This document shows positions 15,599 to 61,066 of a stretch of DNA of 64,000 nt, one piece after another. The notes under the pieces are model-generated. The model saw only the letters and a list, made by a program, of their open reading frames with translations, did no database searches and was not told where the DNA came from. Each line of letters begins with the position of its first letter. The stretch's first letter is position 1. The translations under genes were made by a program, and so were the position numbers. Source of the stretch: Amoebophrya sp. A120 (Eukaryota; Protista; Dinoflagellata); contig CAJINV010000005.1 in NCBI GenBank assembly GCA_905178155.1, positions 6,311,207-6,375,206 of the forward strand. The letters are read 5' to 3'.

Positions 15599-16029
15599 TT
15601 TATTGTACTTAATCTTAATCCTTTACTGGCAAACAAAGCCTCGACAAAAAACAATGGGAAAAACAGAACATGGCACAGGCAACAAACAAGCTGCACTGTA
15701 GGTAAAGAGATGCGACTGCGAAGTCTTCAACGAAGGTGTTGCGCTGTCTAATTGCTTCGGCGCGCGCAATGAACTGTCTCGCCAATGACCAAAAGCACGC
15801 TTCCTTCTTCATCTTCATACAATGACGAAACACAAAAACGAAATAGCTACCCAAAAGAAGATCGATAGGCGGCGACGGTTCGATAAATGCCATCGGCGTT
15901 AACAAAAGCTTCAGACGCTGAATTAAAGAACATCAGAAGGGCCCCGGCAGTCCCCTTGGTCACTGACTCATGGTCTATCTTGAACCCACCCTCACACATG
16001 TGCCACAGCTAACAGAATAAACAGCCAGG

Positions 16030-31800: not shown

Positions 31801-34361
31801 TGCATTACAAATTTCCTCAGCATGAGAAATGAAATTTGTAATGCTGATTTAACTTAAGGAAAAGATTTGTATTGCATGATTACAATACGAGTACGATACT
31901 TTTGCACAGGATATCTAACTGCAGCGGTAAATTCTTCCGCAGCGCCGGTCCGATCTCTATCAAATGCAAAAGTGTCTGGGTCCGGAACAAAGCAACTTGT
32001 CATGCTAAATCTGAATCATGTAAAAATCTGTGTTGCGTGATTACCAAAAGCTGTCCACTTTTGACCTAATCGGGAGGCAGTTTCTCATGCAGAATAGGCA
32101 TGATAGAACTCTCGCAGAATCTGTCATGCTATGTCCTACATACCAGACCTCATGGGTCATGGAAAACCTGCATGACAAGTCTGGCATTCTTCCAGACCCA
32201 GACATTTTTGCAGTTGATAATCTCGCCGTTGATGCGAAATTTGGAATTTTTCGAAATCGTGCGCACGGTGGTCGCCGGGAACTGCCAAAAGCTATGGGAT
32301 TCTCAGACGTTACGTTCTCAACTGTTCCATGATTTATTGTCATGCAAAATTGCCATCAGCTGCCACACGACCAAGCTATTCCGCATGACAAATTATCGAA
32401 GTGCTAAGCAGGCCGATAATCCATGCCAAATTTGTGATGCGAGGCCTGCACGCTACCCCCTTTAACTTTTGCTGTCCTTGCGTCGCAAACCCATGCAACA
32501 GTTGAGAATGTAACAGTTGGGAACGCCATAAAAGCCCAACGGAATTTCGATTTTCTGGTTGGTTTGGAAAATCCGGATTTTTTGGGTTCTTTGCGGTTGC
32601 GCGGCAGTAGACGTCGTCGTGGTAGGAGGTGGAGCAGCTGATGTCGTGTTGATCTGGGCCCCCGCGGGTCTCTGATTCATCTTCATCTGAGGATTCTGTT
32701 TGTTGTGCAGCCCCAATCTGTGTAGAATGGCGACCAGATTTTCTCAGAAGCAAAGAGCGAAGTACGCAAATGCAGATAGGAGAAAAAGCGCCTGAAATTT
32801 TTCGGAAACATTGACGAGTTGCAGCATACCACAGCTGCCCTCGCTGGGCAATTGCTCTCCGCGAACGGAGTGCGTTTCCACGGAAAGATTTTCTGAGGAA
32901 ACCTCGGAGCCCAATTTCCGCAGCCGCTTGCGGACATTCTCTGCGAGAGCTAGAGGAATAATCGTTTTCGGACCACGAGTCGGAAGCACCCTCTGAGACG
33001 CTTTTCGGCGCGCCGCGGCCCAAAAAGCGCAAATTCTGCCGCTTTTTGACCCACGGCGCCGCAAAAAGCGCCTCAGAGGAAATCTTCTGACCCGGAGCCC
33101 GAGAAAAGGTCGAAGAGAATTGAGGCCTCACTGCAGCCTCTGTCACAGAAAATTCCGCCGGCGGCCCCAGAGATTGGGGCCCGGGGCTTCTCCAAAAGCC
33201 GTCGCGCAGAAACAAGGGTGGGCAAGCGAGGGCAGGCGCGACTGCGGTGCTGCGTTCTTTTGACTAACGTTTCGAAAAGTCTCAAAACGCTTTCCCGGCA
33301 CTTTGCTCTTTTGTTTTTCCGCTAATTACTTCTGAAAAAGCCCGATCTATACTGTCACAGGCTGGGCATTTTTCAGAGTGGAAAGGGCAGAGATTGCCAC
33401 TCGCGGCGCGGTCTTTTTCCGTTCCAAAACATTTTTTTTCGCCTCGAGAAAATTCCACGGAGGACCGTGAGCGACGTGCGAAACGAAAATGAGCGACTTT
33501 TGAGCTCTGCACCCCTGACAATCTGTGCCTTCTTATCTGGGCCCCCGCGGGTCTCTGATTCATCTTCATCTGAGGATTCTGTTTGTTGTAGTTCTGTTCT
33601 TGTTGCCCGAACACAACAACTCTACCTGTAGTTCGTGGTCCAGTGCTGGTCCCCACGACAGCAGGCACATTCTTTGTCTTCGAGGCAGTCGCAGCTCCGT
33701 CGCTTGCACTGGATGATGAAGATGCGCCGGATGGGGCCGCGGCGGCATAAAAATCCTGCTGCCCTGGCGCGGCCTTTTCCTCGTCTGCGTCCTCCTCGTC
33801 GGATAGGTCGATGACTTTGCTAGTGGAGGAAGTCGCAAGGTTTGTTTTGATGCCCGTACGTATTTTATTCATCCCACCCAGAAGAACTTCTGTCCTTATT
33901 GTGAGGAAAAATCCCCCCTCCCCATATCGAAAGCGGATTTGTGTTGCTGTATTTGAGTACACAAATCACATCTGTCTTGCTAGAGAGGACTGCAGACCCA
34001 TATCAAGCCTGAGCAGAGAGGCTTTGACTTAGGCGCTTAGCATGAAAAGCGTCCGTGATGTTGGCTCAACAGCATGACAAACCGCCTCCATAATGGGACG
34101 GAAGCTGTTGCCCTTGTCTTCTTGCAACACAAACGTGATTTGTGACCTCAAATCAGCAACACAAATTTTCGAAAACCTACCTCTTCAATATGGGGAGGGG
34201 GGATTTTTCCTTGCGATAGTCCTAGAAGTCTCTTTACTCGTCGTGTCGTCCACCGCATGCTGGTCCTTCAGTGTTGTGCCGGCGTTTTGGAGGTTCTTCT
34301 GCAAGAACGTCCCCAGCTTGGCCTCGGTTGGCACAAACTTACTCTTTTTCGTGGTCAGCAT
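22889..34361 (-). CDS. RAD5: Rad5/HLTF-like DNA repair protein (HIRAN-like, SNF2 ATPase, RING), ~1894 aa; 20 introners plus one 828-bp insert
   Basis: Motifs LQNYQKQGIAFLFARE, GGILADEMGLGKTIQ, PTLVVTPLSLMGQW, DIVFTTYG, RIILDEAQ, WCVSGTPMQN, C3HC4 RING (CASC..PCQHVYCAEC..CVAC), KILVFSQW, LLISLKAGGVGLNL, WWNPAVEEQAFQRIHRIGQ. HIRAN-like segment at ~30600-31440. All junctions in frame. Confidence 0.88.
22918..23057. mobile_element. TIR introner F1
   Basis: TSD CAGCT/CAGCT, frame restored. Confidence 0.95.
23238..23498. mobile_element. TIR introner F2
   Basis: TSD TGGAT/TGGAT; splits helicase motif VI (RIH|RIGQ). Confidence 0.96.
24488..24799. mobile_element. TIR introner F3
   Basis: TSD TCCTG/TCCTG, frame restored. 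Confidence 0.95.
25047..25303. mobile_element. TIR introner F2
   Basis: TSD CGTGT/CGTGT, frame restored. Confidence 0.93.
25369..25633. mobile_element. TIR introner F2
   Basis: Perfect ~30-bp TIR, TSD AACCT/AACCT. Confidence 0.96.
26490..26742. mobile_element. TIR introner, family F6 (GAAAAAACTGTTT), degenerate
   Basis: TSD CGCTG/TGTTG (3/5), frame restored. Confidence 0.8.
26970..27255. mobile_element. TIR introner, family F7 (GTAAAA-CGTCCC)
   Basis: TSD TCTGG/TCTGG; follows Walker A (GKTIQ|M). Confidence 0.95.
27309..27458. mobile_element. TIR introner F1
   Basis: TSD GACAG/GACAG, frame restored. Confidence 0.95.
28676..28984. mobile_element. TIR introner, family F4 (CAGTGAAAAA..GCCCC)
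   Basis: TSD CGCAC/CGCAG, right end GTA, frame restored. Confidence 0.92.
29053..29318. mobile_element. TIR introner F2
   Basis: TSD AGGTT/AGGTT, frame restored. Confidence 0.95.
29846..30105. mobile_element. TIR introner F2
   Basis: TSD TTTCC/TTTCC, frame restored. Confidence 0.95.
30195..30447. mobile_element. TIR introner F2
   Basis: TSD CATCC/CCTCC, frame restored. Confidence 0.92.
30688..30893. mobile_element. TIR introner, family F14 (AGAAAAAAG), degenerate
   Basis: TSD GAAGG/GGAGG, frame restored. Confidence 0.8.
30952..31206. mobile_element. TIR introner F2
   Basis: TSD GCAGG/GCAAG, frame restored. Confidence 0.92.
31269..31418. mobile_element. TIR introner F1
   Basis: TSD TTATG/TTATG, frame restored. 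Confidence 0.95.
31476..31690. mobile_element. TIR introner F5
   Basis: TSD GTGCA/GTGCA, frame restored. Confidence 0.95.
31769..31913. mobile_element. TIR introner F1
   Basis: TSD TCTAA/TCTAA, frame restored. Confidence 0.95.
31958..32219. mobile_element. TIR introner F2
   Basis: TSD ATCTC/ATCTC, frame restored. Confidence 0.95.
32293..32530. mobile_element. TIR introner, family F8 (TATGG..GTTACATTCTCAACTG)
   Basis: TSD AAAGC/AAAGC, frame restored. Confidence 0.93.
32652..33589. mobile_element. 828-bp insert (32707-33534) flanked by exact 55-bp direct repeats of RAD5 coding sequence
   Basis: Identical 55-mers at 32652-32706 and 33535-33589 (encoding NKQNPQMKMNQRPAGAQI). Interior lacks introner motifs. 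Confidence 0.7.
33897..34218. mobile_element. TIR introner F3
   Basis: TSD GTCCT/GTCCT, frame restored. Confidence 0.95.
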
Positions 34362-35984
34362 CTTTATTCATTCGAAAAATCGGCCTTTTACTTTTTCATT
34401 TTCTGCACGCGGTTGTAGTACAAGTTGGCATATATTTGGTATAGCAGTGGCAGAAATAAAGTTGATGTAGCGGCAAATTCAAATGTCATAGAGCCACAAC
34501 ACAAACAAAAATATTTTCGATAGGTTATTGGGCGGAGTCGTGAGGCTGCTACTTCTAGTCTTTCTCCTGACAATTCCACCAGGTCGTGCTGATTAAGCCG
34601 CATGTTAGTTCTTCGTGTAACAAATCTATGGCGGCCCGCAACCGAGAAATTACCTACCATTGCTTTGAAACGACCTGAAGAACCACGATATCAAAGAGCT
34701 CATCTACAACAACCCGGCGGTTTTCGTTCGACAGAGTCGTGCAGCGAGGAGAAGCAAAATCTTTTTCATCTTCTTCATCTATCGAAATTCACAAGTCCCC
34801 CTGGTATAGGAACTGATGGTGATCGTGATCTGACGTTATAATTCCAAATGACGGTCGAATTATCTGTGAGTTTTCCTTTTGAACAGAAGCCTATACATAG
34901 TTTAGGCTTTGGTCGTTGCGAGGAGGCTCTATCGTCTCGAGACGAAGATCATCGTGCGAACATTCGCACTAGAGGTGAACAACGGAAAAATGCAGCCTAG
35001 GCCACGCCACGACAATGAATGCGGCGGGCGTTTGACAGCGCTCCGGCGCGAAGCTCATAATTTCTTGCGGTCTTCCTAATTGCAGCATAAAAATTTTGAT
35101 AAATCAAAAGATTACACCACTGTGGTTTTTGGATGCTTGGAACTAGTACGGACATCAGCACCGGGAATCGGCCTGGTAAGTACTATCGCATGCATCGTGC
35201 AACCTGCACTCTCGCGGCTGCAGCTGCTGCCTCGGTGTTCTACTTTGCAGGGGGGTCTTCAGGAGCGTGTTGTATGTATCTCTATGTACAAAAAAAAATG
35301 AAGCTGCCATTTGTTTCATGCGTTGCATCATGTGTAGTTTTCGTTTCCTTGCATTATTATTTTCGTACCAAAAATAAATCACTCCACAACAGGGTGGACA
35401 AGATTCATTGACTTAAACTAACAGCTCGCATTTAAAAATTTTCACTAGGCGGTATTCGCAATACATACACAACAACTCCTTATCCTCAAAAGTGAATCTT
35501 GAAGACATCGCAAGAATAGGATAAAAATGGGGGGGAGAATATGATAGTTCCTCAAACGATCTTACAAAAGCACGGCAAGTTCTGTACTTCGTCCCGAGCT
35601 TCAACATCATACACGTTTTCTTGTATTAAATTTCTAGGATGATGATAATGTCGGCACCAGTGTGCCCTTTGGCGGACTGCTGCGTGCTACTCCGACGGCA
35701 GCTGAAGCTGAACGCCGATCTTCTACGGACTTGATAAATACTTTTTCAGGGCTGAAGTTTATTTTGCTCAAAATTCCGAACTGCTCAAAATTCCGACCCA
35801 AGAGCTGATTAAGACATCCACATCCAGCCAGCCAGGAGGTCATTTATTTTCCCATTGATAAAGACATCCAGCCAGAAGGTCGTGCGCACGACGTCAAAAT
35901 CAAGAGTGATCCGGCTTCTCTGCTTTCGGATCTCGTCCCGCGATACTGCGAGATGACGTGATCCGCAGGCAGAAGGAAAGCAGC

Positions 35985-36247
35985 TATCAAATGCAAAAAT
36001 GTCTGGGTCTGGAAGGATGCAACTTGTGATGCGCATTGCACAACACACAAAAATCTCTCATGCACAGGCAGCAAAAGGTGCCCATCTCCTGTCACCATAC
36101 TAGGGGATTTGTCATGCAGATTGGGCATTGCGGAAGATTCTCGAAATCTGTCATGCTAGGGCTTCCATGACAGACCTTCTGTGTCATGCAAAAACAGCAT
36201 GGCAAAAGTCGGCACTCTTCCAGACCCAGACATTTTTACATTTGATA
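35985..36247. mobile_element. TIR introner F2, outside any recognised CDS
   Basis: TSD GCAGC/GCAGC. Confidence 0.92.
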
Positions 36248-36721
36248 GCAGCCTGTTGGTTACAACCCGGGTAGAAGTTCGGTCTGTCTGTAGAAATAGA
36301 ACCTCTTCTACTGTAGAAGTTCTACATTGATTCTGCGCCGCGAAAACAAAAAAGCGTTCTTGCAAGCTTCTTCATCGGCACTAAACAAAACAAAACGATA
36401 AAAACATCATACATCTCGAAATGGATATGGAGGAAAAGTTGTACTTAGTTGTTATCTTCGAGTAAGTACTAAATAAAGGACATCAGCTACTCCGCAGCTC
36501 TAGTCCTCGTGTTAGCAGATGATGATGAAAACGGTATCGAGATACACACAAACATGACATGTCTCGCACCTACATCTTTTGTTCATCTTCATCTTCCCCT
36601 TGTTTAATATTTCAGTACTCGATCCGTTGGCCAAAATGTCCTCTTATTTTCCAAACAAAATACTTACTACAGTTTAGGGTCAAAACAACGAATAGATGAT
36701 GGGAAGAGAATTATGCCCGCT

Positions 36722-37042
36722 TATTGAGAGGAAAAATCCCCCCTCCCCATATTGCAATCGCATTCGTCCGAAAATTTGTGATGCAGATTTGAGGTCACAA
36801 ATCCTGTCTGTCTTGCAAAAAGGCAAAGCCTGAGATTCCGCCGCATTATGCCGGCGGTTTGTGATGCTGTTGGGCTTACAGAGCCGACACCTGTCATGCT
36901 GGTCCCCTACGTCAAAACCTCTCGACCCAGGCTGGGCATATGCCTGCAGTCCTCTCCAGCAAGACAGACCTGATTTGTGTACGCAAATGCAGCATCAGAA
37001 ACTTCGTTTCGATATGGGGAGGGGGGATTTTTCATTTTCGTA
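36722..37042. mobile_element. TIR introner F3, outside any recognised CDS
   Basis: TSD CCGCT/CCGCT, right end GTA. Confidence 0.92.
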
Positions 37043-37694
37043 CCGCTCATCTGCACGACCAATGGTCGGTGCAGCAGCAGATCATGTCCTTGTCCTTGTC
37101 CACCCTCATCTGCGCCACAATTTCTATTTTTCACAAGCATGACAAGGAAATAAACAAGTCATGAAATAATAGTCATCTCGTTGTTCTTTTTCTATGCAGA
37201 ATGTTGGTACTTCCTTCTATCGTACAAATTTTTATGTCAAGTGATTGCTCTACTTCCGAAGTATGAATGAACTGGAAAAATGGGATCACAAAGGAGCCAA
37301 ATCGATGAAAACTGAAAAAATATGATCCTGTATGATGTGGGTTTTTTTTATGCAAAGTGACAGAATGTTTGATGTAGTGTTAAAATGAATAGAGCAGATC
37401 GTACACTACTATATGACGATTGGAGGGATTGGCACAACTACCATTTTTGCAACTAGAAGAAAATCCATATAAAAGGAAGAGACTTGTTTTTCCTTTACTA
37501 CTAGCCCGTAGATTAAAGCCACTACTCGACGAGGAGGAGGTTTATTGCCAGTAGAACGAGGAGCGTGAGGACTGTTATTGCTTTCAAAATACGATCATTT
37601 TCCACGGCATCTTCCGCAAATAATCTTCCTCGCTCGGTATTACAGCAGAAGCAGAATCGAAGGAGCACCTGAATACGTACTGAAACACGACTGA

Positions 37695-37967
37695 TATCAA
37701 GTGCAAATATGTCGGGGTCTGGAAAAGATTGCTACATTTGTCTTTGCCATGCATGTCTGACATGCCTCGAGAATCTGTGACGTGTATGGGTATCGGAAAA
37801 AGCGCTCTTACCTGTTATGCAAGAACGCAGTTTTCCACGCGGAATACGCAACACACAGAAGCTCAAAAATTTGTCATGCTTGGCTCCGTATGTTGGCAGT
37901 GCGCCTCTCACTCCCTTTTAGCATAACAAGTTTCATCCAGACGCCCCAGACACATTTGCAATGCATA
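37695..37967. mobile_element. TIR introner F2 (degenerate), in probable 3' UTR
   Basis: TSD ACTGA/ACTGA, 20 nt past the stop at 37988. Confidence 0.88.
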
Positions 37968-37987
37968 ACTGAAGATCGGCCCCGCAC

Positions 37988-40900
37988 TTACGGCGCTAAC
38001 GGGACCGGGTGCTGACCGATTTCGGGTTCAAATTGTCTTGTTACACCATCATCGCCAATGTAAGTATCCGGGTCCCTTGCCAACTCTATTCTGAGGAAAA
38101 ATCCCCCCTCCCCATATCGAAAAGGTGCGTTTCCGAAAATTTGTGTTGCTGATTTGAGGTCACAAATCACGTCTGTCTTGCAAGAAGACAAGCGCAGAGG
38201 CTTCCGCACCATTATGGAAGCGATTTGGCATGCTGTTGCGCCTAGGGGACGCCCGTTTGCAATGCTAAGCAACTAGACCTATGCGCCCCTACCTAGGCCG
38301 AGGATCTGGCTGCGATGCCTTACTGCAAGACAAATCCGATTTGTGTACCCAAATCCAGCATCACAGATTTCCACTTCGATATGGGGAGGGGGGATTTTTC
38401 CTTTTGATAAACTCCGCCTGGATTCTAGGTTGCTGCACGATTTTGAAGTCCCGGTACCACTTATTGCAGTGAAAAGTGCCCCCCACCCCTGAAATTGCAA
38501 AATTTGTGATGCGAGGTTTCCAGATGAAAACTTTCTGTCATGCATGGAAGGAGTATGGATCTTTCTGATGCAGAGTCTAGGCGTGTATCGCATCGCTTGC
38601 ATGACAAGCGCCGCTCGTGCTGGGGCCTTTTGCAATACAAATTTTTGCTACTCACGATTGGAAACCTGTGATGCTGATAGATGAAAGAGGGCGAATGTTT
38701 CATTTGGAAAGGTTTGCAATACAAATGCGTTCACGTTCGGGAGTGGGGGCATTTTTCATTGTAATACCACTTGAAGAGCGCGTTGTCCGTCTCGAGCACG
38801 TATGCCTTGCAAATATCGATCTGGGTCAGGGAGGATGCGAAGACGAACTTGTGACGCATGTTGCGGATCATACAAACATCTGTGTAGTCGCGTGAGTTGC
38901 AAAAGGTGCCCACAACTGCTGGCCATGCTGAGAGGGAATTTCCCAGGACTACAGGCATCACCGAGGGGCGGCAGATCATCCTGTGAAGATCATGCTAGGC
39001 CCCCGCCTGCATTCCAGACGTAGTGGAGCAAGCTTGGAGAATAAAACTGCATGACAAATCTCGCATCAATCTTCCAGACCCAGATCGATTATATTTGCGT
39101 TTGGTAGCACGTATCAAATGTAAAAATGTCTGGGTCTGGAAGAGTCGGGGCTTGTCATGCACATTTTGCATGACCCGCGAGGTCTGTGATGCCGGTGCTA
39201 GCATCATAGATTTTTTGAGAGCTTCTTGATGGTAATTACGCATGAGAAATGCCCTCCCCGCGTGCCAAGAGCTGACTCCTCTTGCTGCTCATGCAACACA
39301 GATATTTTTACAATCCACAGACAGCATTACAAGTTCCACTCTTCCAGCCCCAGATCGATATTTGCATTTGGTAGCACGAGGTCGTTCACGATAGCCGCCC
39401 GCACCGCATCCGCGCCTTGCACGGGAGCAGCCAAAACCCTATCCTGTGCAAAAGTATCGTACTCGTACTAATCGCATTCATGCATTACAAATTTCGTTCT
39501 CAGGTTAAATCCGCATTACAAATTTTCTTTCTCATGCTGAGAAAATTTGTCATGCGATTTATACTAGTACGATGCTTTTGCATTTCATAAACCCGGCCAT
39601 CCGGCAAATTCGCACCGTTCAGGTCCTGTTCCTGGTTTGGTTGCCACACGCCCGAGTTCGGTGCGAGGTTCCGCAGGCGTGCGGCCACCGCCGCGGGGCT
39701 GTTGTCACCGCTGTGCCCGCCCCCAGGTCCCGACAACTGGAACACCTTCTTCTATTGAGAGGAAAAATCCCCCCTCCCCATATTGAAAAGGCATGCCACG
39801 AAAAATTTGTGATGCTGATTTGTGACCACAAATCCTGCCTCTCTTGCAAGGGGGCAAATCCAAAGAGTCCGCCACTTTATGCGGACGATTTGTCATGCTG
39901 TTACGCCTACATCGAAGGCCTCTGTTATGCTCCTAAGCACCTACACAAAAACGCCCCTACGCAGGCTGAGGCCGCCTGCAGTGCCTCATTGCAAGACAGA
40001 GCTGATTTGTGTAAGTACACAGATCCAGCCACAGAAATTTCCGTTTCAATATGGGGAGGGGGGATTTTTCATTTTGATATCTTCGCTTCCACGACAAGGT
40101 ATTGACTTTTCTGAAGTGGTATCAAATGTAAAAATGTCTGGGTCTGGAAGGTTGGAACTTGTGATGCTGTCTCTGGATTCTAAAAAATTTGCATTGCATG
40201 ACCAGCAACAGAACTCCAGTTTGTGCTACACGGAGAGGGCATTCCTCATGCGGTAGAGGCATCACAAAGGCCTCTAAAAATCTGTCATGCTAGAGCATGC
40301 ATCACAGACATCATGAGTCTTTCAGAATATGCATGACAAACCTGGCAAGCTTCCAGACCCAGACATTTTTACATTTGATAAGTGGCTCGTTTGACGCCGG
40401 AACCATCCACACCCGGGGGTTCGCGCCCCCGGCGCCGACCGGTGCTCGGCCGTTCACAAACAACCCTCGAAGCTCCTCGGTGTTGGTATGGATTGTAAAA
40501 ATGTCTGGGTCTGCTGGAAACTTGTGATGCTGGGTGGCGTATCATGAAGAAGCCACAAGTGCTGGCTCAGCATGGCAAGTTTGTGAGCTTCTTCTAGGTG
40601 TTGATGCCTATTGTGCATGGCAAACTGCGTTTCTGCATGGCAGCAAAATGGGTCTCTTTGGTCACGTGCATGAGAGATTTAAGAGTCATGCCAGACAAGC
40701 ATGACAAACATGCACTCTTCCAGACCCAGACACTTTTGCATTTGATAGTTGGTGTAACAGTACAACTTCTTGCGTCTTTCTCCGCCGGCGTTCCGTTGCG
40801 AATAGTCAATCACCAGTAGCAAGTCGGGTATCGCGAACATGTTTACAGGATCTACTATCCAGTGCAAATTATATCGATCTGGGTCTGCAAGATTTTTGCC

Positions 40901-43900: not shown

Positions 43901-46900
43901 GTCTGGGTCTGGAAACTTGTGATGCAAGGAAGGGACTAGTGAGCACACAACTACTTATCATGCGCTGCCAAGCATGACAAGTTTTTCCGTGGTTCTGAGT
44001 TGCGTACTTCGCATGAGAAACTGCGTCTTTGCATGACAGGCAAGAGGAGCTCTTTGTCGCGGTGACGGTGCAACACAGAGTTCAGAGTCATGCCAGACTA
44101 GCATGACAAGTCTCGCATCAACTTCCCAGACCGCAAGACATATTTGCATTTGATACTTCCAGTCGCTGTACCACTGCGGCAAAAATCGCGACAGCTCTTC
44201 CGCGTGCTGATCGCGCAGAGTGTACGGGTCCGCGCTCGCCACGACGATTCCCTATCAAATGCAAAAATGTCTGGGTCTGCAATGTTGGCGGGTTTGTCAT
44301 GCATATTTTGCATGGCCCAGGGTTGTGTGTGATGCATGTCCTTCCATCACAGACTTTTAGAACCCTTCCTGATGCCTACGCCGCATGACAAATGCGCTCC
44401 CCGCGTAGCACAAACTGGACTCCTCTTGCTGGTCATGCAATACAGATTTTTTTACCGTCCAGAGTTAGCATGACAAGTTGCAATCTTCCAGACATCCAGG
44501 GATTTTTGCAATTCATATTCCGCGATTGGGCACGACAGTCCTCGCGAGGAGGCCCGGAATGTCGCGGGGGATGGCTCCGTTCGTCAGGGTTTGGCGGAGG
44601 TCAGCCTGCGGAAGCACCATCTGCGCATTTTGGAGCACCACGAAGTTTTTCAGCTGCAGGTTTTCCCCAGCAACGTTGGCCCGCACACTATTCGGGTTTC
44701 GTTTCCGCTGGTACAAAGCCTTCCGCAGGGCTGCGTTGGAGTGGAAACAGTACAGGACTTTGCGTGCCGGATCCTGGTATGGATTGCAAAAATGTCTGGG
44801 TCTGGAAGATTGATGCAACTTGTCATGCTAAATCTGGATCATGCAAAAATCTGTGTTGCATGAGTGCCAAAAGCTGCCCACTTTCGGCCAAGTTGGGAGG
44901 GGATTTCTCATGCAGGATAGGCATTAGAAAAGTCTCGCAGAATCTGTCATGCTAAGTCCTACATACCAGACCTCATGGCTCATAGAAAACCTGCATGACA
45001 AATCTGGCAATCTTCCAGACCCAGACATTTTTGCAATCCATACCTGGAAGTCCGCTACCACCATCAGGTTGGTGATCGGCGTCTGCAACGGCAAGGGGGT
45101 TGGCGGTGCCGCGTTGTCGGTCGCGGCCCGCACGTGCGCGACCGGGAGCTGCAGGGCCGCCCGCGGCTTCGACTTCGGGCTGGTAAACTATCCTATGTAA
45201 AAACGGGGCCCACACACCAGAGTCAAGATGGGAACTCGGCTAAACAAATCCACAAGCTTTGGCTGTTTTGCATGACAGATTTGGACTCGTAGTGTAGTGC
45301 TGTTTGAGCTGGCTCAGCAGCATCACAGATCTAGTATATCATGCTGATTGGAGCATGACAAATTCCGAAACACGACAAAACAATGCTTGTCATGGGGCTT
45401 CACATGAGAAACATCTTCGGCATGCAGAATTGCATGACAACTCTGGGGACGCCGACGCTGTTGCTCAGGATATAAACTCGCAGTTGACCATCTTCCACGG
45501 CCCGGCCACGCCGCCTGCACTATCCAAGAGAAAAAAGCTGGCAGGGCATTACTATCTATTATATTCATGCAAAAGTAGAGGTCTACAGAGGGTGGAAGAG
45601 AGGTGGCCGAGAGGTAAAAAAGAGGTCGACAGAGGTCAAAAAGAGGTCGACAGAGGTGGAGAGGTGGCGCGGGAGGTCATTCGAGAGGGTGGCCGAGAGG
45701 GTGCGCGAGTATAGCCCGCCGAAGGGCTCGCCCTAAAGCCGCGCCTATAGGGACCAGAGGGGGCCGAGAGGGTCCAGAGAGGGTAAGCGAGAGGTGGACA
45801 GAGGTGCCGAGAGGTTGCGCGAATAAGGGCGAACCTCTCGCGCACCCTCTGAGCCACCTCTCGGCCACCTCTGTAGACCTCTACCGGCGAGTATAGCCGG
45901 ATTATTAGCAACACCTCTCGGGAGAGGTCAAAAAGAGGGTCTGCGAGAGGGTCAGAAAACCCCGAATCCGCCCGGCACGCGGCCGGTTTTGTTTGGGCCT
46001 TTTCATCGCGCAGGCCCGCACCCTCTCGCGCTACCCTCTCGCGCACCCTCTCGCGCACCCTCTCGCGCCACCCTCTCGCGCCACCCTCTCGCGCTACCCT
46101 CTCGCGCCCCCCTCTCGTGCCAACCATTTCCGCCGGGAGGCAAATAGGGCGGGGGCGGGATGGTGATCAAAAAAGGGCAGCGCGGCCCCCGTTCTGCTTC
46201 CTTCGGCACCTATGTCGAGGTGGCTTCTCTTCTCCCCCAGGCTTCGTTGCAGTTGCTCCCTGCGCATAGCGCCAGCAGGCGCGGGAAGCGCGCGGGAGGC
46301 CGCGCGGGCTGACATGGCGCAAACCGGCGCCAGTAGTTCCCCCGGTCTGTCACGCTGTGCCCAAAGACCCGGCGCTGCGGTCCGACCCGCGCATTGTCCT
46401 GCCCCGCCACAACAGCCTTGCGCTCCGGCGGTAGCCGGAGCATGGCTGGTATTTGTAATGCAAAAATGAATACGCAGAAAAATTTGTCATGGGTGGCCTC
46501 ATAGCATGCTGCTTCGGATATGCAACGCAGGCGCTTTTGTGTATTTATTTTTGCATTACAAATATGCCCTGCCAGCTTTTTTCTGTGTGATATGCACCCC
46601 CCGCGGGGAGGCGTGAGGTGAAATCGACTTCGTTGGTCTTCTTGTGCTGGGCCTTCCACTGAGTGAAAAATTTCACAATGTTGATCTCCAGGTCTTGCTT
46701 CATCTGCCGCTTCATATCACGCAACATCTGCGGCGTGTGGCCGTTCGTCCGCTGCCAGACTGAAGTGGGAGATTGCAGGACGGAATAATCCTCGATGCTC
46801 TGCGCTACGTCTTCTCTCTGTTCAATCGTCACTAGGTTCTGGTTGCCGTTACCCGCACCGAACAAATGCTCCATGCGCAGCACTAGGTACGACTCCTCCT

Positions 46901-50696: not shown

Positions 50697-51004
50697 TATG
50701 GGAGTGTCAGGATTGAAATCGTCAAAGTTGAAACAACTTGTAATGCATAAAATCGATACCAGTTAGAAGCCCAATTTCCAAGCGGCGCATGACAAATTTG
50801 GGTAGAACCGAAATCCAGTTTGTAATGCTGTTTGGGTAAGGAAGACGCCTTTTGTCGTGCTACTTTAGCAGCTCTATTTCTACCCCGCAACAGGCTTACA
50901 GCCTGCCTCTCTTGCCTACTCTGCAAGACAGGCAATTTGTGGGTTGCATTTTATGCATCACAAACTATTTCAACTATGACGATTTCGGTCCTGACGCTTC
51001 CATA
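50697..51004. mobile_element. TIR introner F9, outside any recognised CDS
   Basis: TSD TCATT/TCATT; opposite orientation to the 48705 copy. Confidence 0.92.
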
Positions 51005-51445
51005 TCATTCACGATCTTAGTATCCTGTTCTTCATCTTGTACTATCGACAGCCTCGCTTATTTTCCTAGATATAGAAATCAGCATCAGCTAGTGTACAAC
51101 TGATAGGATATCATCTTCACAACTCCTGTCTGATGTGGCTTAGATTAGAAGATGAACATGTTGATCTGCAGTAGTTGTGACCACGAGAACACCACGATAG
51201 TTGCACTCCTGCATGGATAGAAATATTAAAACCTGCGCAGGAGCCCTGCAGCATCCATTTTTTGGCTTTTTCTTTATCGATCGAAACAACGCAGATGAAG
51301 CATAAAAAGTAGCTTGCTCTCTAAAGATTCCGTCTGGTTTTTTGTTTTTCTTCCCTGTACTATCTCCTGCGGTTTTCACAGACTTTCACTTTTTGCAAGA
51401 TCATACACAAAAAAAATACTTCGTTTCGATATTAAAATCCTTTTA

Positions 51446-54400: not shown

Positions 54401-57400
54401 CTCTGCATGAGAAATAAAATTTGTAATGCTGATTTACCGTAAGAAAAAGATTTGTAATGCAAGATTGCAATACGAGTACGATATTTTTGCACAGGATACG
54501 CCATGCAGTTCCGCGAACCCCGGGCGGTGGAGACAGTAGCCGGGCGGTATCGTGAGAAGGATCCCCCCTCCCCATACTCACAATGGAAATTTGTGATGCT
54601 GATTTGCGGCCACAAATCAGCTTTGTCTTGCATATGAGGCAAATGGGAGCCGCGTGGCGCACTCCACAGCCAAGCTGTCATGCGCTTTTGCCTACTGCAA
54701 AGCGGTCTGTCATGCCTGAGTGCTAACCTGAATTTGCATACCTAATCAGGCCTAGGAAATGCCTGCAAGCGCTGGCTGCAATACAGCGCTGATTTGTGTA
54801 CACAAATCCAGCAACATAAATTTTCGTTTCAATATGGGGACGGGGATTTTTTCACTTTGATAGGCGGGCCGTCGTCGCGCCCGTGCTTGTACAGCATCAG
54901 CTTGCCCGCTTTGTTATTCTGTGCACAAGTATCGCACTCGTATAATAAATGCAAGTCCTGCATCACAATCTTGTTCCCAAGGCAAATCAGCATTACAGAT
55001 TTTATCTCTCATGCTGAGGAAATTTGTAATGCATTTATACGAGTACGATACTTTTGCATTTCATATTTGTCAAAAAACGTGTTCTGGCCGTTGGCGAAGA
55101 AGTTTATTTTGGAAGACGTTGCCCCCCGCGTAGACAAACTTGTAGTTTCTTCTTCTTCATCACCCTGTTTTGGTATAATTATTTCCGGAGCTACCGCCGG
55201 AGCTGCTCCTGCTGCTGCAACGTCCTGCACCAGAAAATTGTCGTCGGGAAGGAAGTATGAATTGCAAAAGTAATATCGTACTTCGCCTATTAGTAATCGC
55301 AATCATGCATGACAAGCACAATAAATCTCTCTCTCAAGGTCAAGCTGAATCTACTGGATAATGACAAATTCCGTTTATCATTCTGTCATGCGATAGTTTT
55401 CTCACTAGGTACTATCGAATTTGCTTTTGCACATAGGATAGGAAGAGGAAAAACGGACTGAGATCGGGCAGAAACGCCATCGCTTGCTCTTTGCACAAAG
55501 TGTTAGCACTTTTCGTTTGGTGCACAACTTCGCCGTTATGTGATTGTTCTTTGTTCCCACAGGGTTCTACATAGACGAAACGGAGTTGCTTTTTCGTCCT
55601 CGCGGAAGTCGATTCCGAAACTTCTCGCTGCATGTCCTCCAGGGAGGTGCTCTGTTGTTTTTGTTCCTGGTAATTGTATAATGCGCTCTCCTGCAGACGC
55701 TGGTGATGTTCATCCTCTTGGGCAGCTGATGTGCGTAGAAGTTGACTACTGCTCTCCGAAGTAGATTCGGCTGCATTAATTCGATCCCGGCCCGCAGCGG
55801 CCTTAGCGAGCTTGATCTGCTGGTCTATGAGAGCGCACAACTCCGTCTCGTTCCCCTCATTTGCATTGCATGAACAGCAATACAGGCACCAGCACACATG
55901 GAGCCTGTACATGACAAACTCATGCACCTAGTGTAATACTGTTTGGGCTTCCGGAATCTGTCATGCATAATAGTGAGACAAGGGAGCAATTGGGATTGTG
56001 GATTTTGCATGAGAAATGAGACTGAGGGGGAGTTGTGCGCCGTCGTATGGTCGGTCAAAGAGACAAACTCCACAGTGGTTTCATCCAACCACGCCGGCGC
56101 CTTGTCCAGTTCTTCTCCCAGGATGAAAATCCTTCCGACCTGGTTCAGCAAGCCGAAGCGTTCGTAGGATATGGTATTCTCAACCGTTACCTTCTCAGCT
56201 GTTACATGAATCTGTAATGCAAGAATGGCAAAAGCGCAAGGGGGAAGATTGCAAAAATTGCATTACAAATCCCGCGCAGATTTAGGTCCTGTTTAGCCCT
56301 TCGCAAATTTGTCATGCGAAGCAGCTTGATCTTGTGGATCATGATGGTAGTTTCGCATGACAAATTCATGTAACAGTTGGGAATGTAACGTGTGAGAACT
56401 CCATATAGGATCGGAGTTGGTTGCGGAGGTCTTCGTCCCCGCCCTTGCTGCTCCAAAAAGTGACGACTATCCAACAAAAAAACACCATCACAATCACTTT
56501 TGCACATTTTTGCAATACAAAAATTTTTGTCATGCGCAAAAATGCATCACACACAGTCAAGAGTTAAAGGCGATTTTCCTTTGTGTTTTTGCAATACAAG
56601 AAAAATTTGTCATACGAGACAAATTTCTGATGCAAAACCTCCTAAGTGTGATTGTGATGGTGTTTTTTTCTTGGATAACGACGTCAATGGTTCTATTCCG
56701 CTGTGGAAGATGGTTGCTGGTGGACCGCAACATGCGGTCGTCTGGTCCTTGTGGTGCTCGTCCGGAGGAAGATGCTGTGTTAGAGCTTTAACACCCGCTA
56801 GCATGAGTAGCGGTGAATCTTTAGTGAATTTTGCATGACAAGTTGCAGAGTAGACTGCAGATGCGTTGTCCCTCTTGGTCTTCTGGGGAGTAGGTTCTGC
56901 ACGCTGCGCCAGAACGAAGTCGCGGCTCATGCGGCGGGCAGCTAGAAATAACCTGGGCGTTCTTGTTCTTTGGGCCATTTTTGCGCCTCCCCGTGCTTGC
57001 ATCAGAGCACTACAGCAGCATGGCAAAGCACCAAAAAGAAAGGCGGCGAAACGCATGCAACTACGCAAAAAGGCGCGAGAGCAAGGGCGAAAGGACCAGG
57101 CCGGGAGCTTTGACGCGTCTATCCGGCAGGCGTGTGAACTCTCCCGGCCTTTTCGGCAGAATATAGACGGGCTGAGGGCAGCAGAGGGCGCTTGTCTTTT
57201 CCCTCCGGCCCCACTTCCCAGGGCCTATTTGCGGACTTCCTTGAGCACTTTCTCAGGCAGACGCGCAGAAGAGTAAGAGCCACCCGATCCACCTTCTTTG
57301 GTTACATACGCACTACACAGCCCGGCGAGCCCCCGCAAGACCACTTCTTTCGGTCCTGCAAGCGCCACCACGCGACGAGCAGCCCTTCACGCTATGTGGG

Positions 57401-59664
57401 ATGCTTGGGCTCGTGTCCATACCTAGCGCACTTCTCTTTTAAGTACTTACTTAAATGCAAGTCATGCAATACAAATTCAGTGGAAATTCACCCTTCTGTA
57501 CGCTAACGACCGTCCAAGGCATAATCCGCAACATGCGGTCGTCTGGTCCTTGTGGTGCTCGTCCGGAGGAAGATGCTGTGCTACCTCCGAAACGTTCGTA
57601 GGATATGGTGTTCTAAAGCGTTACCTCCTTCTCAGCTGTTACCTGAATCTGTAATGCAAGAATGGCAAAAGCGAAAGGGGGAGGATTGCAAAAATTGCAT
57701 TACAAATCCCGCGCATATTTAGGTTCTGTTTAGCCCTTCCCAAATTTGTCATGCATACCCGACTGCACCACATCGAAAACCTTTGCACCGTCGCCGAAGC
57801 AGCTTGATCTTGTGGATGATGATGGTAGTTTCGCATGACAAATTCAGGTAAAAACAGTTGGGAATGTAACGTTTGAAAACTCCATATAGGATCGGAGTTG
57901 GTTGCGCAGATCTTCGTCCCCGCCCTTGCTGCTCCAAAAAGTGACCACTATTCAAGAAAAAAACACCATCACAATCACTATTGCACGCTTTTGCAGTACA
58001 AAAATTTTTGTCATGCGCAAAAATTAAAATGCATCACAGTCAAAATTTCTCCGGGTTTACCCTTCTGTTTTTGCAATACAAGAAAAATTTGTCATGCGAG
58101 AAAAATTTCTGATGCGAAACCTCCTAAATGTGATTGTGATGGTGTTTTTTTCTTCGATAACCACGTCAATGGTTCTACTACTCCGCTGTGGAAGATGGTT
58201 GCTGGTGGTGGACCGCAACATGCGGCTATGGGGTTCTCAGCCGTTACATTCTCAATTGTTACATGAATTTGTCATGCAAAAGCACCATCATCATCCACGC
58301 GATCAAGCTGCTTCGCATGACAAATTTGCCTAGGGCTACACAGCACCTAAATCTGTCCGGAATTTGTAATGGTACAGGCGCAACCCTCCCCCTTTCACTT
58401 TTCCCTTTCTTGCATCACAAATCCATGTAACAGTTGAGAATGTAACAGTTGAGAACGCCATAGCGGTCGTCTGATCCTTGTGGTGCTCGTCCGGAGGAAG
58501 ATGCTGTGCTACCTCCTATCCCGGGGAAAAATCCCCCCCCCATATCGAAAAGGTATGTTTCCGAAAATTTGTGTTGCTGATTTGAGGTCACAAATCACAT
58601 TTGTCTTGCAAGAAGACAAGGGCAGAAGCTTCCGCCCCACTATGGAAGGGGTTTGCCATGCTGTTGGCCCTAAAAGTGACCCGCTTGCCATGCTGAACAA
58701 CTAGACCCATACGCCCCTACCTAGCATGGGGATTTGGCCGCAGTGCCTCTCTGCAATACAAACCTGATTTGTGTACACAAATCCAGCATCAGAAATTCCG
58801 TTTTGATATGGGGAGGGGGGATTTTTCCTTTCGATACCTCCATGCAGCTCCTGGCACTGCTTCCCGATCTCGTCCCCCAGTAGCTCCAAGGCCACGTCCT
58901 CCTCGAAATTCTTTTTCGGATTATTGGTCAACCGATACAGCTTCTGCAACTGCGCATCGCTGAGATGCTGCCGCTTCTGCTGCACAAATTGCTTGAGGGA
59001 AAAGCTCATCGTATCCAGCTGCCGGATCGGGGCGAGTTGCTATTAAACAAAAAAGTGTTAACGTTAACGGTTTCCGCAGATGGCAGTCACGCATTACAAA
59101 TTTTGCCTTCCATGCATGCTACGCAATACAAATTTGGGCAGCTTGTTTTCTGGTGCATTACTGCATCACAAATTCCGTCAACGGTAACACTTTTCGTTGT
59201 GATAGTTGCCTCGATGAAGATGCTAACTTTATTTGCTGGTGGGAGGTACTTGTCTGCTTCTGCTTGCTCAAGCTCATCATCCCCGAAGCTGCACGCCCGG
59301 TCGTGGAGGACGTGGATAGGGAATTCTTCTTCGTGGTAGTTCTTTCCATTTTTGCGGTCTTGGAAGATGCTGTGGACGTCGACCTTTTCAACATCTGGTG
59401 CGCTGCGGTCTTCGCCTTCTGACTTTTCGACTTGGACGAGGCCCCCATCTCCATGGCGGCCACTTGGTGTATTTTTATTTGTGCGGGCGAAAAAATATTG
59501 CACGCTGTCCAGTGAAGGTCTTGATCATGCGGCAAGAAAAAGAGGACCACGACGTGTTTCAACATTTTTCTCACTGCCGACAGAAAGCTTGTTCTTCTTG
59601 TTGTGCGGATGAAGTGGCCGCGGGAGGACATGATCTTCACGGCAACAGCAGCACGAGACTGCAT
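51446..59664 (-). CDS. Stealth-family protein (putative hexose-1-phosphate transferase, GNPTAB/CpsY-related), ~943 aa; 19 introners, a 746-bp insert and an internal tandem duplication
   Basis: Spliced motifs TIDVVTFW (CR1), DEDLRNQLRSYERF..RIFIL..PAWL..LPDLSPFFLFLPDDNFL (CR2), FFMNIQ..FFQTMFPKPSRFE (CR4). Hydrophobic N-terminal stretch. Start uncertain. Confidence 0.78.
51475..51757. mobile_element. TIR introner F2
   Basis: TSD CAGCA/CAGCA. Confidence 0.93.
51800..52034. mobile_element. TIR introner F8
   Basis: TSD GCCCG/GCCCG, frame restored. Confidence 0.95.
52088..52381. mobile_element. TIR introner F2 (degenerate)
   Basis: TSD TTGCG/TCGCG, frame restored. Confidence 0.88.
52486..52767. 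mobile_element. TIR introner F7
   Basis: TSD TCGAA/TCGAA, frame restored. Confidence 0.94.
52811..52959. mobile_element. TIR introner F1
   Basis: TSD GGTCG/GGTCG, frame restored. Confidence 0.95.
53084..53338. mobile_element. TIR introner F2
   Basis: Perfect ~29-bp TIR, TSD CGCCA/CGCCA. Confidence 0.96.
53488..53800. mobile_element. TIR introner F3
   Basis: TSD CTTGT/CTTGT, frame restored. Confidence 0.94.
54352..54498. mobile_element. TIR introner F1
   Basis: TSD CGCTG/CGCCA, frame restored. Confidence 0.9.
54548..54862. mobile_element. TIR introner F3
   Basis: TSD GGCGG/GGCGG, frame restored. Confidence 0.93.
54915..55065. mobile_element. TIR introner F1
   Basis: TSD TTTGT/TTTGT, frame restored. 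Confidence 0.94.
55256..55440. mobile_element. TIR introner F1 (degenerate)
   Basis: TSD GGAAG/GGAAG; splits Stealth CR2 (FLF|LPDD). Confidence 0.9.
55826..56047. mobile_element. TIR introner F11
   Basis: IR GCGCACAACTCC, TSD TGGTC/TGGTC, frame restored. Confidence 0.88.
56170..56405. mobile_element. TIR introner F8
   Basis: TSD TAGGA/TAGGA, frame restored. Confidence 0.94.
56468..56677. mobile_element. TIR introner, family F10 (AAAAAACACCATCACAATCAC)
   Basis: TSD ACGAC/ACGAC, frame restored. Confidence 0.95.
56725..57580. mobile_element. 746-bp insert (56780-57525) flanked by exact 55-bp direct repeats of Stealth coding sequence
   Basis: Identical 55-mers at 56725-56779 and 57526-57580. 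Interior has imperfect subterminal inverted repeats (GGTGAAT..TGAATTT..TGCATGAC) bracketed by CGCTA/CGCTA (56801-57500). Confidence 0.7.
57604..57886. mobile_element. TIR introner F8 (paralog of the 56170 copy, with extra internal segment)
   Basis: TSD TAGGA/TAGGA, frame restored. Confidence 0.93.
57949..58159. mobile_element. TIR introner F10 (paralog of the 56468 copy)
   Basis: TSD ACCAC/ACCAC, frame restored. Confidence 0.94.
58227..58462. mobile_element. TIR introner F8
   Basis: TSD GCGGC/GCGGT; empty paralogous sites nearby. Confidence 0.95.
58517..58836. mobile_element. TIR introner F3
   Basis: TSD CCTCC/CCTCC, frame restored. Confidence 0.95.
59041..59204. mobile_element. TIR introner, F5-like
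   Basis: TSD GTTGC/GTTGC, frame restored. Confidence 0.9.
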
Positions 59665-61066
59665 TTTTTGTTTTTTTTTTTTTTTTATATACAAATCACA
59701 AGCAAAAAACGGCGAAACTCATCATAGACAACTTCAGATCGGAGGTAGAATTGATCCAGGCTCGTCATCCATGTTTTGTCGCAGTTCGTGACTCGTGGTT
59801 CGTAAATGCCATCCGACTCCTTTGCCTCTCGGCTCCAGATCACTGTCTCCTTCTCCTCGTGACATGCTACAGTTGTTCACATGGTCAGCAGGCGGCGAGT
59901 CACACCACCGAGTTGTCTCCATCCTCGCTGCGCAAGAGAGTCGACAACTGTAGTGATGCGACGTCGCAGGTGCTATGTCGCTCTTCCTTTTTTCGGTGGT
60001 GTTTCTGTACCTGTTCCTAATGTCCTCTGTCCCGCCCCACACGCCTGCGAAAAAATGTCTAAAGGTCGGGCAATCGAACTCCACATATGTGGGTTTTGAA
60101 GAATCAACTTTGGGATCCTGAGATGCCATGACATGCATGACTGGGCGCGGCGCTCCTAGATGTTAGATGCTGCTTTTTGAAGTGAATACACAGGAGGAAG
60201 GTAGAGAAGAGGCAATTTTTAGTAGAAGTAGTTCATTTTTTAACTTATTCGCACGTTACTATCGCCACAAAAGATATATATCAAGAAGTAACCCATACTC
60301 TTTTCTTATAGCTCGCCTTGTTTCGCCTTTTGTCGTCCACTGTCTCTCGTTTTTGACATTTCCGCATTTTGTAGCTCCTTCACACAAAGCCAGTTTGATT
60401 TGCATTCAATGCCTCCATCGTGCTTTTTATCCTTTTTGTCTTAGGATCTCTCTTCACAACTTTTCCCCTCCCTCATTCTGCATCACAACTTGTTGCCGCA
60501 CGAACTTCATTATATCTTCTGCCTTTCTTGTCAGGCTAGGCACTTGTGCACTTCGCAGCAGCTTTTCACGCTGTGCATTTATCTCTTTTGTTCATACATC
60601 TTCATTTTTGAGCACAGTGGTCATTTCCATGTTGTTAAAAAATCAAGGACAAGATTGCTGCTTTCTTGTCAGAATCTTTCATGTGTATGTTGAAAAATTT
60701 TGCTTGCTCTCTCAAAAGGAGCCAAAGCTACTCTGCGCGTATTTTGTCTGAATGCCGACGAAGTTGCGTACTTGCGTAGGACCTTCTGCTTGTGCTGCAT
60801 GTCCGTGCTCATGCTACACCAGGATGCTCGGCTCATCCTGTGGGTTTGCAGTTGTCCGCTTACTGCCCCATTTGCATACTACTCCTGTTGCTTTCTGCAG
60901 TTGCATCGTCATGCAGAGAGAATAAACGCACCTTCGCTTCTCATGCTCCACCACTCCTGCTTACTTCAAAATTGTCAAAAATAGAAAAAGTCCTCGCATT
61001 ACAGCTGTTATGCCGCGGGAGGACATGATCTTCACGGCAACAGCAGCACGAGACTGCATTTTTTGT
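59617..61066 (-). mobile_element. 1340-bp poly(A)-ended insert (59672-61011) flanked by exact 55-bp direct repeats
   Basis: Identical 55-mers at 59617-59671 and 61012-61066. A T-run of ~15 nt starts at 59672, which is poly(A) at the 3' end on the minus strand. Confidence 0.72.

Follow-up and report, generated by a model that had tools for sequence, protein, structure and literature searches.

Background

Staggered nicks are the standard source of target-site duplications. SLACS reportedly leaves a duplication of 49 bp. The R9 LINE of Adineta vaga makes a 126 bp target-site duplication, and Dualen-4b of Chlamydomonas reinhardtii makes duplications longer than 50 bp with a median of 900 bp (PMC6895275, PMC9977147). 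We consider a stretch of 64,000 nucleotides from Amoebophrya sp. A120, called the window below, in which three inserts are each flanked by a 55-bp direct repeat. Like those LINEs, the three sites have a long perfect target duplication on both sides, which for the LINEs is ascribed to distant nicks on the first and second strands, and site 3 has a poly(A) end. However, R9 is specific to rDNA and carries itself, whereas the cargo here is non-coding and of several kinds, and the target exons are unrelated to one another. Dualen duplications vary widely in length, but those described here fall in a narrow band of 55-60 bp with a shorter tail. All three are also outside the 10-20 bp typical of APE LINEs (PMC6895275).

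There are other systems to compare. The introners of Amoebophrya (PMC7789003, PMC12130899) belong to the same type of genome and have TAT...ATA ends. Insert 2 resembles them in its degenerate inverted ends and a shared internal motif, and it likely acts as an intron. Introners have direct repeats of 3-5 nt and leave the message unchanged, whereas here the repeats are 55 nt and the message likely gains about 51 bases from insertion 2. The Retro-DNAs of primates (PMC11195612) consist of DNA-transposon sequence that a LINE copied in trans through an RNA; their duplications are longer, and a tail is often missing. By definition they have no inverted ends, and they peak at 8-bp duplications, but in insert 2 both ends are kept and the duplication is 55 bp.

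The last comparison is with endonuclease-positive Penelope-like elements, including Naiad and Chlamys with their N-terminal GIY-YIG nuclease (PMC8557442, PMC3846280). The cargo of one related locus, L020, is part of a GIY-YIG-first ORF that has long RT-like homologues. Penelope elements form palindromes and move unrelated sequence in trans (PMC8557442, PMC3846280). They also retain introns, and their template may be antisense (PMC3846280). Their reported duplications are 8-10 bp, as in Adineta (PMC3846280), against 55-60 bp here, and the window inserts have neither a pseudo-LTR (no terminal direct repeat above 9 nt) nor a hammerhead in the Rfam scans. Dinoflagellates and alveolates go unmentioned in the main text searched on endonuclease-positive Penelope-like elements.

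The repeats are target-site duplications

An earlier note on this DNA described perfect 55-bp direct repeats at three sites, and all three are present (Table 1). Each pair is a pair of identical 55-mers with a mismatch directly beyond it, and about 1e-25 such pairs are expected by chance. The inserts are 828, 746 and 1340 bp long in the window, as the earlier note had it, with the inner length of insert 3 unconfirmed by reads. A scan of the window for further isolated repeats of this kind found none besides the three. Repeat matches of 42 and 34 bp are parts of a duplicated exon.

Table 1. Features of the three insertion sites and their host genes (positions in the window)
Feature	Position	Strand	Remarks
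Gene 1, 5' part	26575..34361	-	likely RAD5-type SNF2/RING helicase; SNF2, RING, Helicase_C at 23405-27100
Target-site duplication 1, left copy	32652..32706	.	within a coding exon of gene 1 (minus); contig of left flank ends at 32681
Insert 1	32707..33534	.	fold-back repeat; imperfect long hairpin with its centre near 33035 (z = -9.4)
Target-site duplication 1, right copy	33535..33589	.	right flank contig starts 33560
Gene 2	55070..59664	-	no Pfam match
Target-site duplication 2, left copy	56725..56779	.	contains AG 56776-56775 (minus), likely 3' splice site
Insert 2	56780..57525	.	multi-copy element; degenerate terminal inverted repeats; two introner-type motifs; relative in locus L030
Target-site duplication 2, right copy	57526..57580	.	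right flank contig starts 57551
Duplicated exon segment of gene 2	58206..58516	-	preserves empty form of site 2; ordinary introner at 58227-58462
Target-site duplication 3, left copy	59617..59671	.	likely gene 2 ATG; T-rich 3' end adjoins poly(T); flank contig ends 59646
Insert 3	59672..61011	-	15-base poly(A) end on minus strand; right 1.0 kb single-copy
Target-site duplication 3, right copy	61012..61066	.	DNA contig reaches from insert 3 to 30 nt inside this copy; right flank contig starts 61037

The repeats are target-site duplications because the empty sites restore long reading frames. Gene 1, which we take to be of the RAD5 type from its domain order, has 1172 open codons at the empty site against 250 with insert 1 retained. 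Gene 2 has at least 558 open codons either at the empty site or with the 51-nt gain argued for below, and retention of insert 2 introduces 8 stops. Repeats 1 and 2 lie within coding exons. Repeat 3 contains the likely start codon of gene 2, the gene that insert 2 interrupts, and insert 3 lies at the start of this gene and leaves the frame whole. Weak searches for annotated protein products of gene 1 or gene 2 found nothing. A target-site duplication with an empty-site equivalent, as here, is also expected of an insert mobilised in trans by a LINE through target-primed reverse transcription. The three targets share no motif except a TGT or TGTG end, which the cases in a related organism lack, and since they are unrelated there is no single fixed target sequence of the R9 kind.

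Are the repeats an artefact of assembly?

One can imagine that the repeats are k-mer overlaps with the inserts threaded in from elsewhere, or that a loop of repeat plus insert is really a circle or tandem array. The number 55 is a common value of k, and the earlier note had warned of this. The k-mer explanation predicts that the repeat is absent from the reads and that the flanks join directly at other k. Contigs from public reads serve as a separate check, assembled at k=31 according to PMC12424806, and they branch at 6/6 predicted repeat borders. The borders in Table 1, together with 56754 and 61041, are those simulated for filled sites and not those for empty ones. It must be noted that phasing over 55 nt is beyond the reach of DNA contigs at k=31, and that an empty site plus a circle would give the same borders as a filled site. 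Insert 3 is partly unmatched by the DNA run, and the window may be misassembled locally there. Read sets X1 and X2 may also be the window's own source sample. However, one contig at single-copy depth holds the junction of insert 3 with its repeat, and the left junction of site 1 explains single-copy depth (23.9 and 48.8). A contig from another sample covers insert 3, repeat and flank together, and the related assembly has 57 and 60 bp rather than 55. The warning is largely refuted, and we consider an artefact very unlikely.

Probable splicing at site 2

The earlier note held that the two broken genes would need removal of the insert plus one repeat. Removal of a whole repeat does not fit site 2, where contigs from a likely-RNA read set retain both copies. 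These contigs cross repeat 2 twice and fit a splice to the AG inside the downstream repeat. Only models that cut at that AG account for their pieces of 77, 50 (at double depth) and 53 nt. Models with donors at 0 or 34 nt, without any splicing, with clean removal or with a cut of the usual introner type predict contig borders other than those observed. Clean removal in particular predicts one unbroken contig, and removal without residue in the manner of introners was not found. Perfect splicing through an AG-GT within the repeat was rejected, as the repeat does not have that motif. Insert 2 is therefore likely spliced out from near its first base, a donor position placed by contig borders and depth, to the AG five bases into the downstream repeat, and gene 2 would survive. 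By the same borders and depth, about 17 duplicated codons (some 51 bases) would be retained in frame, and insert 2 would act as a new intron.

The read set used here (X3) was taken as RNA by guess, with one contig that does not have an introner as a supporting sign. It does not cover the exons around site 1, and the splice evidence concerns site 2 only. Raw RNA reads with the same species label (X9) gave 34 matching reads, all partial and all on introners. At site 3 a likely-RNA contig (60660-61138) runs across the right copy of the duplication.

The length of the duplications

Exact repeat pairs 300-3000 nt apart were surveyed in the window and 130 related loci. There were 143 pairs, of which 47 were rare and 13 of those isolated. 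Among these 13, six measure 55-60 bp, no length exceeds 60 bp and none falls in the range 20-29 bp. The other 34 rare pairs were dropped as parts of longer duplications, including L036 (53 bp), L029 (53 and 42 bp) and L025. L034 was retained in the count though some of its cargo is similar to sequence lying 600 bp upstream, as were L030 and L023, whose context is complex. L052 was reclassified as a 57-bp tandem duplication that captured no cargo and was struck by ordinary elements with 5-bp duplications. The earlier note claimed a fixed length of exactly 55. This claim is not supported as it stands, because inserts of a similar kind in the assembly of a related organism have repeats of 57, 57 and 60 bp and some of 30-39 bp. 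The duplication length is a narrow band.

The cargo

No similarity among the three inserts rises above shuffled controls in 6/6 pairwise strand comparisons. The cargo is heterogeneous, as the earlier note said: insert 1 is a fold-back present in roughly two copies, insert 2 an inverted-repeat element with multiple copies, and insert 3 a piece that ends in poly(A). The contig for insert 1 (32709-33494) has depths of 54.6 and 114.9 against 22-30 and 32-50 in the flanks, which puts the core at about twice single-copy and the right end higher. Depth bins in insert 2 are 201 and 728 against about 43. Its ends pair at 30/40 terminal bases (G-U allowed), right up to the junctions, with TAT at one end only, and inserts 1 and 3 pair at 22/40 and 17/40.

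Insert 3 has a diverged relative elsewhere. The contig for insert 3 (59990-61041) has a depth of 40.2 and a joint at 60729-60796. A 2611-nt DNA contig matches 59701-59805 and then diverges into other sequence. The inner part (59806-59989) is unconfirmed, and from 59806 to about 59930 there is no cover at 99% likeness, a setting that also leaves a hole in insert 2 (56978-57146), and such holes prove nothing. A poly(A) tail is found in one of the three window inserts, and a terminal tail in 0/5 related cargos examined.

Pfam searches of 24 stop-free frames, taken from the inserts and from two further GC-rich blocks, had no match with an E below 0.02. Rfam had no matches in the window at the gathering score and only sub-threshold hairpin matches at a relaxed E. 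A tRNA search found none, and the introner word had 0 matches in viral contigs. No window insert showed translated similarity to the Penelope-like proteins (best E 0.23), and none of these inserts has GIY-YIG and RT in one ORF.

A candidate enzyme

At L020, the related organism's 60-bp case, the cargo comprises the 344 codons at the 5' end of an ORF. A weak search for long relatives of this ORF found nothing, but an exhaustive search did find them, and GIY-YIG scores above the Pfam cut-off in two of the nine scanned (P0005 and P0009). The RT signal in these homologues is weak: RVT_1 in P0005 has E 0.066, and profile matches to RT structures have E 0.026. The protein has no entry in Atlas. The L020 cargo is likely part of a Penelope-like GIY-YIG retroelement. 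It comes from another organism and may be passive cargo.

The mechanism of insertion

The earlier note proposed a second insertion pathway with a 55-nt staggered cut. Real insertions with long duplications, mixed cargo and a pathway distinct from that of the introners are supported; of the 75 elements called as introners in the window, 62 carry an exact 5-bp duplication. The exact 55 was not supported, and the enzyme is a matter of inference. We give roughly even odds to a retrotransposon that makes its nicks some 55-60 nt apart and inserts other RNAs in trans. Its endonuclease would nick the two strands at that distance and so make the long target duplication, and the reverse transcriptase would then paste whichever mobile-element RNA is bound. 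The leading candidate would be a Penelope-like element with an N-terminal GIY-YIG nuclease, followed by a LINE, and the 30-39 bp duplications may be trimmed products. The poly(A) end of insert 3 adjoins the T-rich end of its target, as in target-primed reverse transcription. Sites 1 and 2 have repeated cargo, and the same architecture is found with 57-60 bp in the related organism. It counts against a retrotransposon that poly(A) is found at only one of three sites. So does the greater likeness to DNA transposons of insert 1, which forms a strong hairpin, and of insert 2, an inverted-repeat element of full length.

The main rival has no RNA step. A staggered break of about 55-60 nt, from paired nicks or from a transposition with only one end joined, would be filled in by the host and would catch free transposon DNA or a templated copy. 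Inserts 1 and 2 have no tails, which suits it, and so does the pairing of the ends of insert 2 right to the junctions. The L052 duplication suggests a break that is filled in with no need for RNA, and lengths in the related organism range from 30 to 60. Against it stands the poly(A) end of insert 3, which adjoins a T-rich target end. A fixed-geometry cutter is still needed, because three equal lengths in one window have a probability of about 0.0015 if lengths are uniform over 35-60, and repair names no such cutter. On balance we think DNA capture possible but rather unlikely. L052 is exactly a case of another scenario, where a short tandem duplication came first and an ordinary transposon landed later between or within the copies. 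At the three window sites the cargo ends show neither a 5-bp duplication nor the rest of a repeat unit, and three independent landings at the exact junction are unlikely. For the window we consider this scenario very unlikely.

The retrotransposon reading can be made more specific. A Penelope-like GIY-YIG nuclease of Amoebophrya, with a fixed stagger of about 55-60 nt, would paste any mobile-element RNA, hairpins included, and the inserts would become introns that add 15-17 codons, because the long duplication carries its own AG acceptor. We offer this only tentatively and consider it doubtful in full.

Implications

A practical lesson for assembly is that flanking 55-bp repeats can be genuine. 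A narrow 55-60-nt stagger over unrelated cargo implies a fixed-geometry cutter that is undescribed for this lineage in the literature searched, and the length band is a signature that can be counted genome-wide to find the enzyme. The band also bears on the open question of how retroelements place the second-strand nick. These sites allow a direct test of the origin of new introns in a genome with a relaxed spliceosome, where the duplication gives the splice site and adds a short tandem repeat to the protein. If the Penelope-like scenario is true, the long duplication supplies its own AG acceptor, and this would be a second, unreported route to intron gain and the growth of protein repeats in the lineage.

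Three exact repeats in two host genes

At sites 1 to 3 both copies of each 55-mer are identical, with mismatches directly outside. The enclosed inserts have no mutual relationship in sequence. Both points agree with the earlier note, which also held that two inserts break otherwise intact genes. With introners (short TAT...ATA elements) removed by script, gene 1 has 1172 open codons when site 1 is empty, but it stops after 250 when insert 1 is kept. Gene 2 has at least 558 with empty sites and stops after 322 with insert 2 kept. Downstream exons of gene 1 match SNF2, RING and helicase families, and a duplicated exon of gene 2 preserves the empty form of site 2. The start codon of gene 2 likely sits in repeat 3, so insert 3 would leave the frame unbroken.

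One stop remains in gene 1 with all called introners removed; SNF2 exons resume in frame beyond it, and it is probably an intron overlooked by the calling rule. Gene 2 has an internal duplication with a period of about 1.45-1.48 kb. The same introners are in both copies, with an extra introner in copy 2 only and insert 2 in copy 1 only. This is a dated series of insertions.

Coordinates of the features, in the window unless a locus of the related organism is named
Feature	Position	Size	Flank contigs simulated for filled site (end; begin)
Site 1 repeats (gene 1, minus strand)	32652-32706, 33535-33589	55 bp	32681; 33560
Site 2 repeats (gene 2, minus strand)	56725-56779, 57526-57580	55 bp	56754; 57551
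Site 3 repeats (likely start of gene 2)	59617-59671, 61012-61066	55 bp	59646; 61037
Insert 1	32707-33534	828 bp	
Insert 2	56780-57525	746 bp	
Insert 3	59672-61011	1340 bp	
X3 pieces around site 2	56678-56754, 57546-57598, 57526-57575	77, 53, 50 nt	
Stop in gene 1	26575		
Gene 2 internal duplication	56147-56779, 57587-58516		
Long TAT...ATA element	45521-46592	1072 bp	
G+C-rich block	15900-17800	1.9 kb	
Tandem duplication, L052	12750-13960	57 bp	
Likely Penelope-like fragment, L020	1886-3549		

Cargo and setting

In none of the inserts could a protein or RNA family be recognised. Insert 1 folds as a long hairpin (z = -9.4); its core has about twice the single-copy depth with no base differing, and its right end is deeper yet. 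Insert 2 folds ordinarily overall (z = -0.84) and has degenerate inverted ends (30 of 40 bases paired) that reach the junctions. It holds two introner-type motifs, its depth rises to about 15-fold near the right end, and locus L030 of a related organism has a relative (89% over 63 nt). On the minus strand insert 3 finishes with a poly(A) of 15 bases facing the T-rich repeat end; a diverged relative occurs in DNA and in what is likely RNA. Within 59675-59989, a 2611-nt DNA contig of single-copy depth fits 59701-59805 and then leaves the window for other sequence, and the next ~125 bases (59806 to ~59930) are uncovered by contigs. Insert 3 may therefore be longer than assembled, its length in the reads perhaps being several kb; alternatively, there may be another copy with a poly(A) end.

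This eukaryotic window has a high density of short TAT...ATA inverted-repeat elements. We called 75 (one a false call within site 2, a few missed), and 62 of them have an exact 5-bp duplication. They fit the introners described for Amoebophrya-type genomes, notably in the TAT-starting motif (PMC7789003). The 1072-bp element in the table also has a 5-bp duplication; it is GC-rich inside and contains short tandem repeats, and L054 and L029 have relatives of its right end. The G+C-rich block (65-68%) has no long flanking repeat, called inverted ends or Pfam match.

Are the sites real?

Of eleven read runs, four were compared at site 1 and two at sites 2 and 3. Logan uses k=31 for its contigs (PMC12424806), and a k=31 graph was simulated for filled and empty sites. 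An empty site gives a single joined contig, and a filled site gives the borders in the table. All six filled-site borders are present, so the earlier caveat of a k=55 assembly artefact is not borne out. Insert 3 runs into repeat 3 within one single-copy contig that ends at 61041 as predicted, and depth arithmetic gives the left junction of site 1 single-copy depth. It must be noted that read sets X1 and X2 may be the sample behind the window itself. DNA contigs of k=31 also fail to link the two sides of a 55-nt repeat, which leaves an empty site accompanied by a circle formally possible. In another sample, X3, one contig reaches from insert 3 through the repeat into the flank. We consider an artefact very unlikely.

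Fate of insert 2 in RNA

X3 is, at a guess, RNA; it is without one introner that the DNA carries. Seven models of site 2 were simulated and only two give all three X3 pieces, the 50-nt piece having a depth of 16.2 versus 8.3. Both cut directly after the AG at 56776-56775, with a non-G base preceding. Clean removal predicts no contig break, yet X3 breaks. The leftover depth of that bin agrees with a junction contig of 61 nt, which would put the donor one base into insert 2; a donor at 22 nt is possible too. Either preserves the frame of gene 2, and the one-base model adds 51 nt with no stop. We infer that insert 2 is spliced to the AG within the repeat, at a predicted junction. The earlier note thought that the insert plus one repeat must be removed, but at site 2 the likely-RNA pieces fit the AG cut instead. 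The same kind of splice could rescue site 1.

A band of lengths

Related loci were fetched by an introner word from a separate metagenome assembly (at least 130 loci, 669 kb; 78 of at least 2 kb). Their introners are 79-97% identical to those of the window in best matches. The window and these loci have 143 exact pairs, 47 of them rare and 13 isolated. In the window and loci listed, the isolated pairs are 60, 57, 57, 55, 55, 55, 48, 42, 39, 35, 34, 33 and 30 bp; the 42- and 34-bp pairs belong to the duplicated exon in the window and the 48-bp pair to L052. One fixed length of exactly 55 is thus not supported, given pairs of 57, 57, 60 and 30-39 bp in the related organism; duplication length is a band near 55-60 bp plus a shorter tail. 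In the 57-60-bp pairs (L020, L034, L057) the exact repeat has one mismatch and then two more matches before it, on the same side in all three, so the real borders may be as much as 3 bp beyond those given. Site 2 has this pattern too, on the opposite side.

A candidate enzyme

In L020 (the 60-bp case) the cargo includes codons 1-344 of an ORF, which the junction truncates. The fragment has no Pfam match and only weak GIY-YIG matches. An exhaustive search gave 12 matches, and the homologues are 939-1336 residues. An N-terminal GIY-YIG exceeds the Pfam cut-off in 2 of 9 scanned. Reverse transcriptase (RT) signal is weak (E 0.066; profile matches to RT structures at E 0.026), and YVDD-like motifs are visible in the sequences. 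This is the layout of the Naiad/Chlamys Penelope-like elements, and the main text of the paper on that clade names neither dinoflagellates nor alveolates (PMC8557442). The L020 segment is likely the 5' part of such an element, with an N-terminal GIY-YIG nuclease, from an Amoebophrya-like organism. Penelope elements can mobilise sequence other than their own in trans. They may also copy from an antisense template, and fragments from the 5' end alone would then result; duplications of 8-10 bp are reported for them (PMC3846280), versus 55-60 bp here. No similarity was found between the window inserts and these proteins, so the tie is a lead and not a result.

Mechanism

Long duplications come from opposite-strand nicks spaced by the duplication length (PMC9977147, PMC6895275). 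Here too the distance between the nicks would equal the duplication length, and a retrotransposon would insert the cargo in trans. If lengths were spread evenly over 35-60, three identical ones would have p ~0.0015, which calls for a cutter with preferred geometry. The earlier proposal of a staggered cut that takes varied cargo is supported as to the mixed cargo, but the exact 55-nt stagger gives way to a band near 55-60 plus a shorter tail.

We give about an even chance to a retrotransposon acting in trans, which is favoured on three grounds: the poly(A) junction, the variety of the cargo, and the relative's Penelope-like cargo. Capture of DNA at a staggered break accounts equally well for the tail-less hairpin and for L052, an exact 57-bp tandem duplication with no cargo that is possibly a product of the same cut. 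The poly(A) end of insert 3 against a T-rich target end speaks against capture, which we regard as the main rival and as less likely. One copy in L052 was later struck by ordinary elements with 5-bp duplications. One can imagine such a two-step origin for the sites, but like the artefact it is unlikely.

Long target duplications are already known from R9 and Dualen LINEs (PMC6895275, PMC9977147). In the article texts and abstracts searched (including PMC7789003, PMC12130899 and PMC12005148), we found no account of duplications of 55-60 bp for this lineage.
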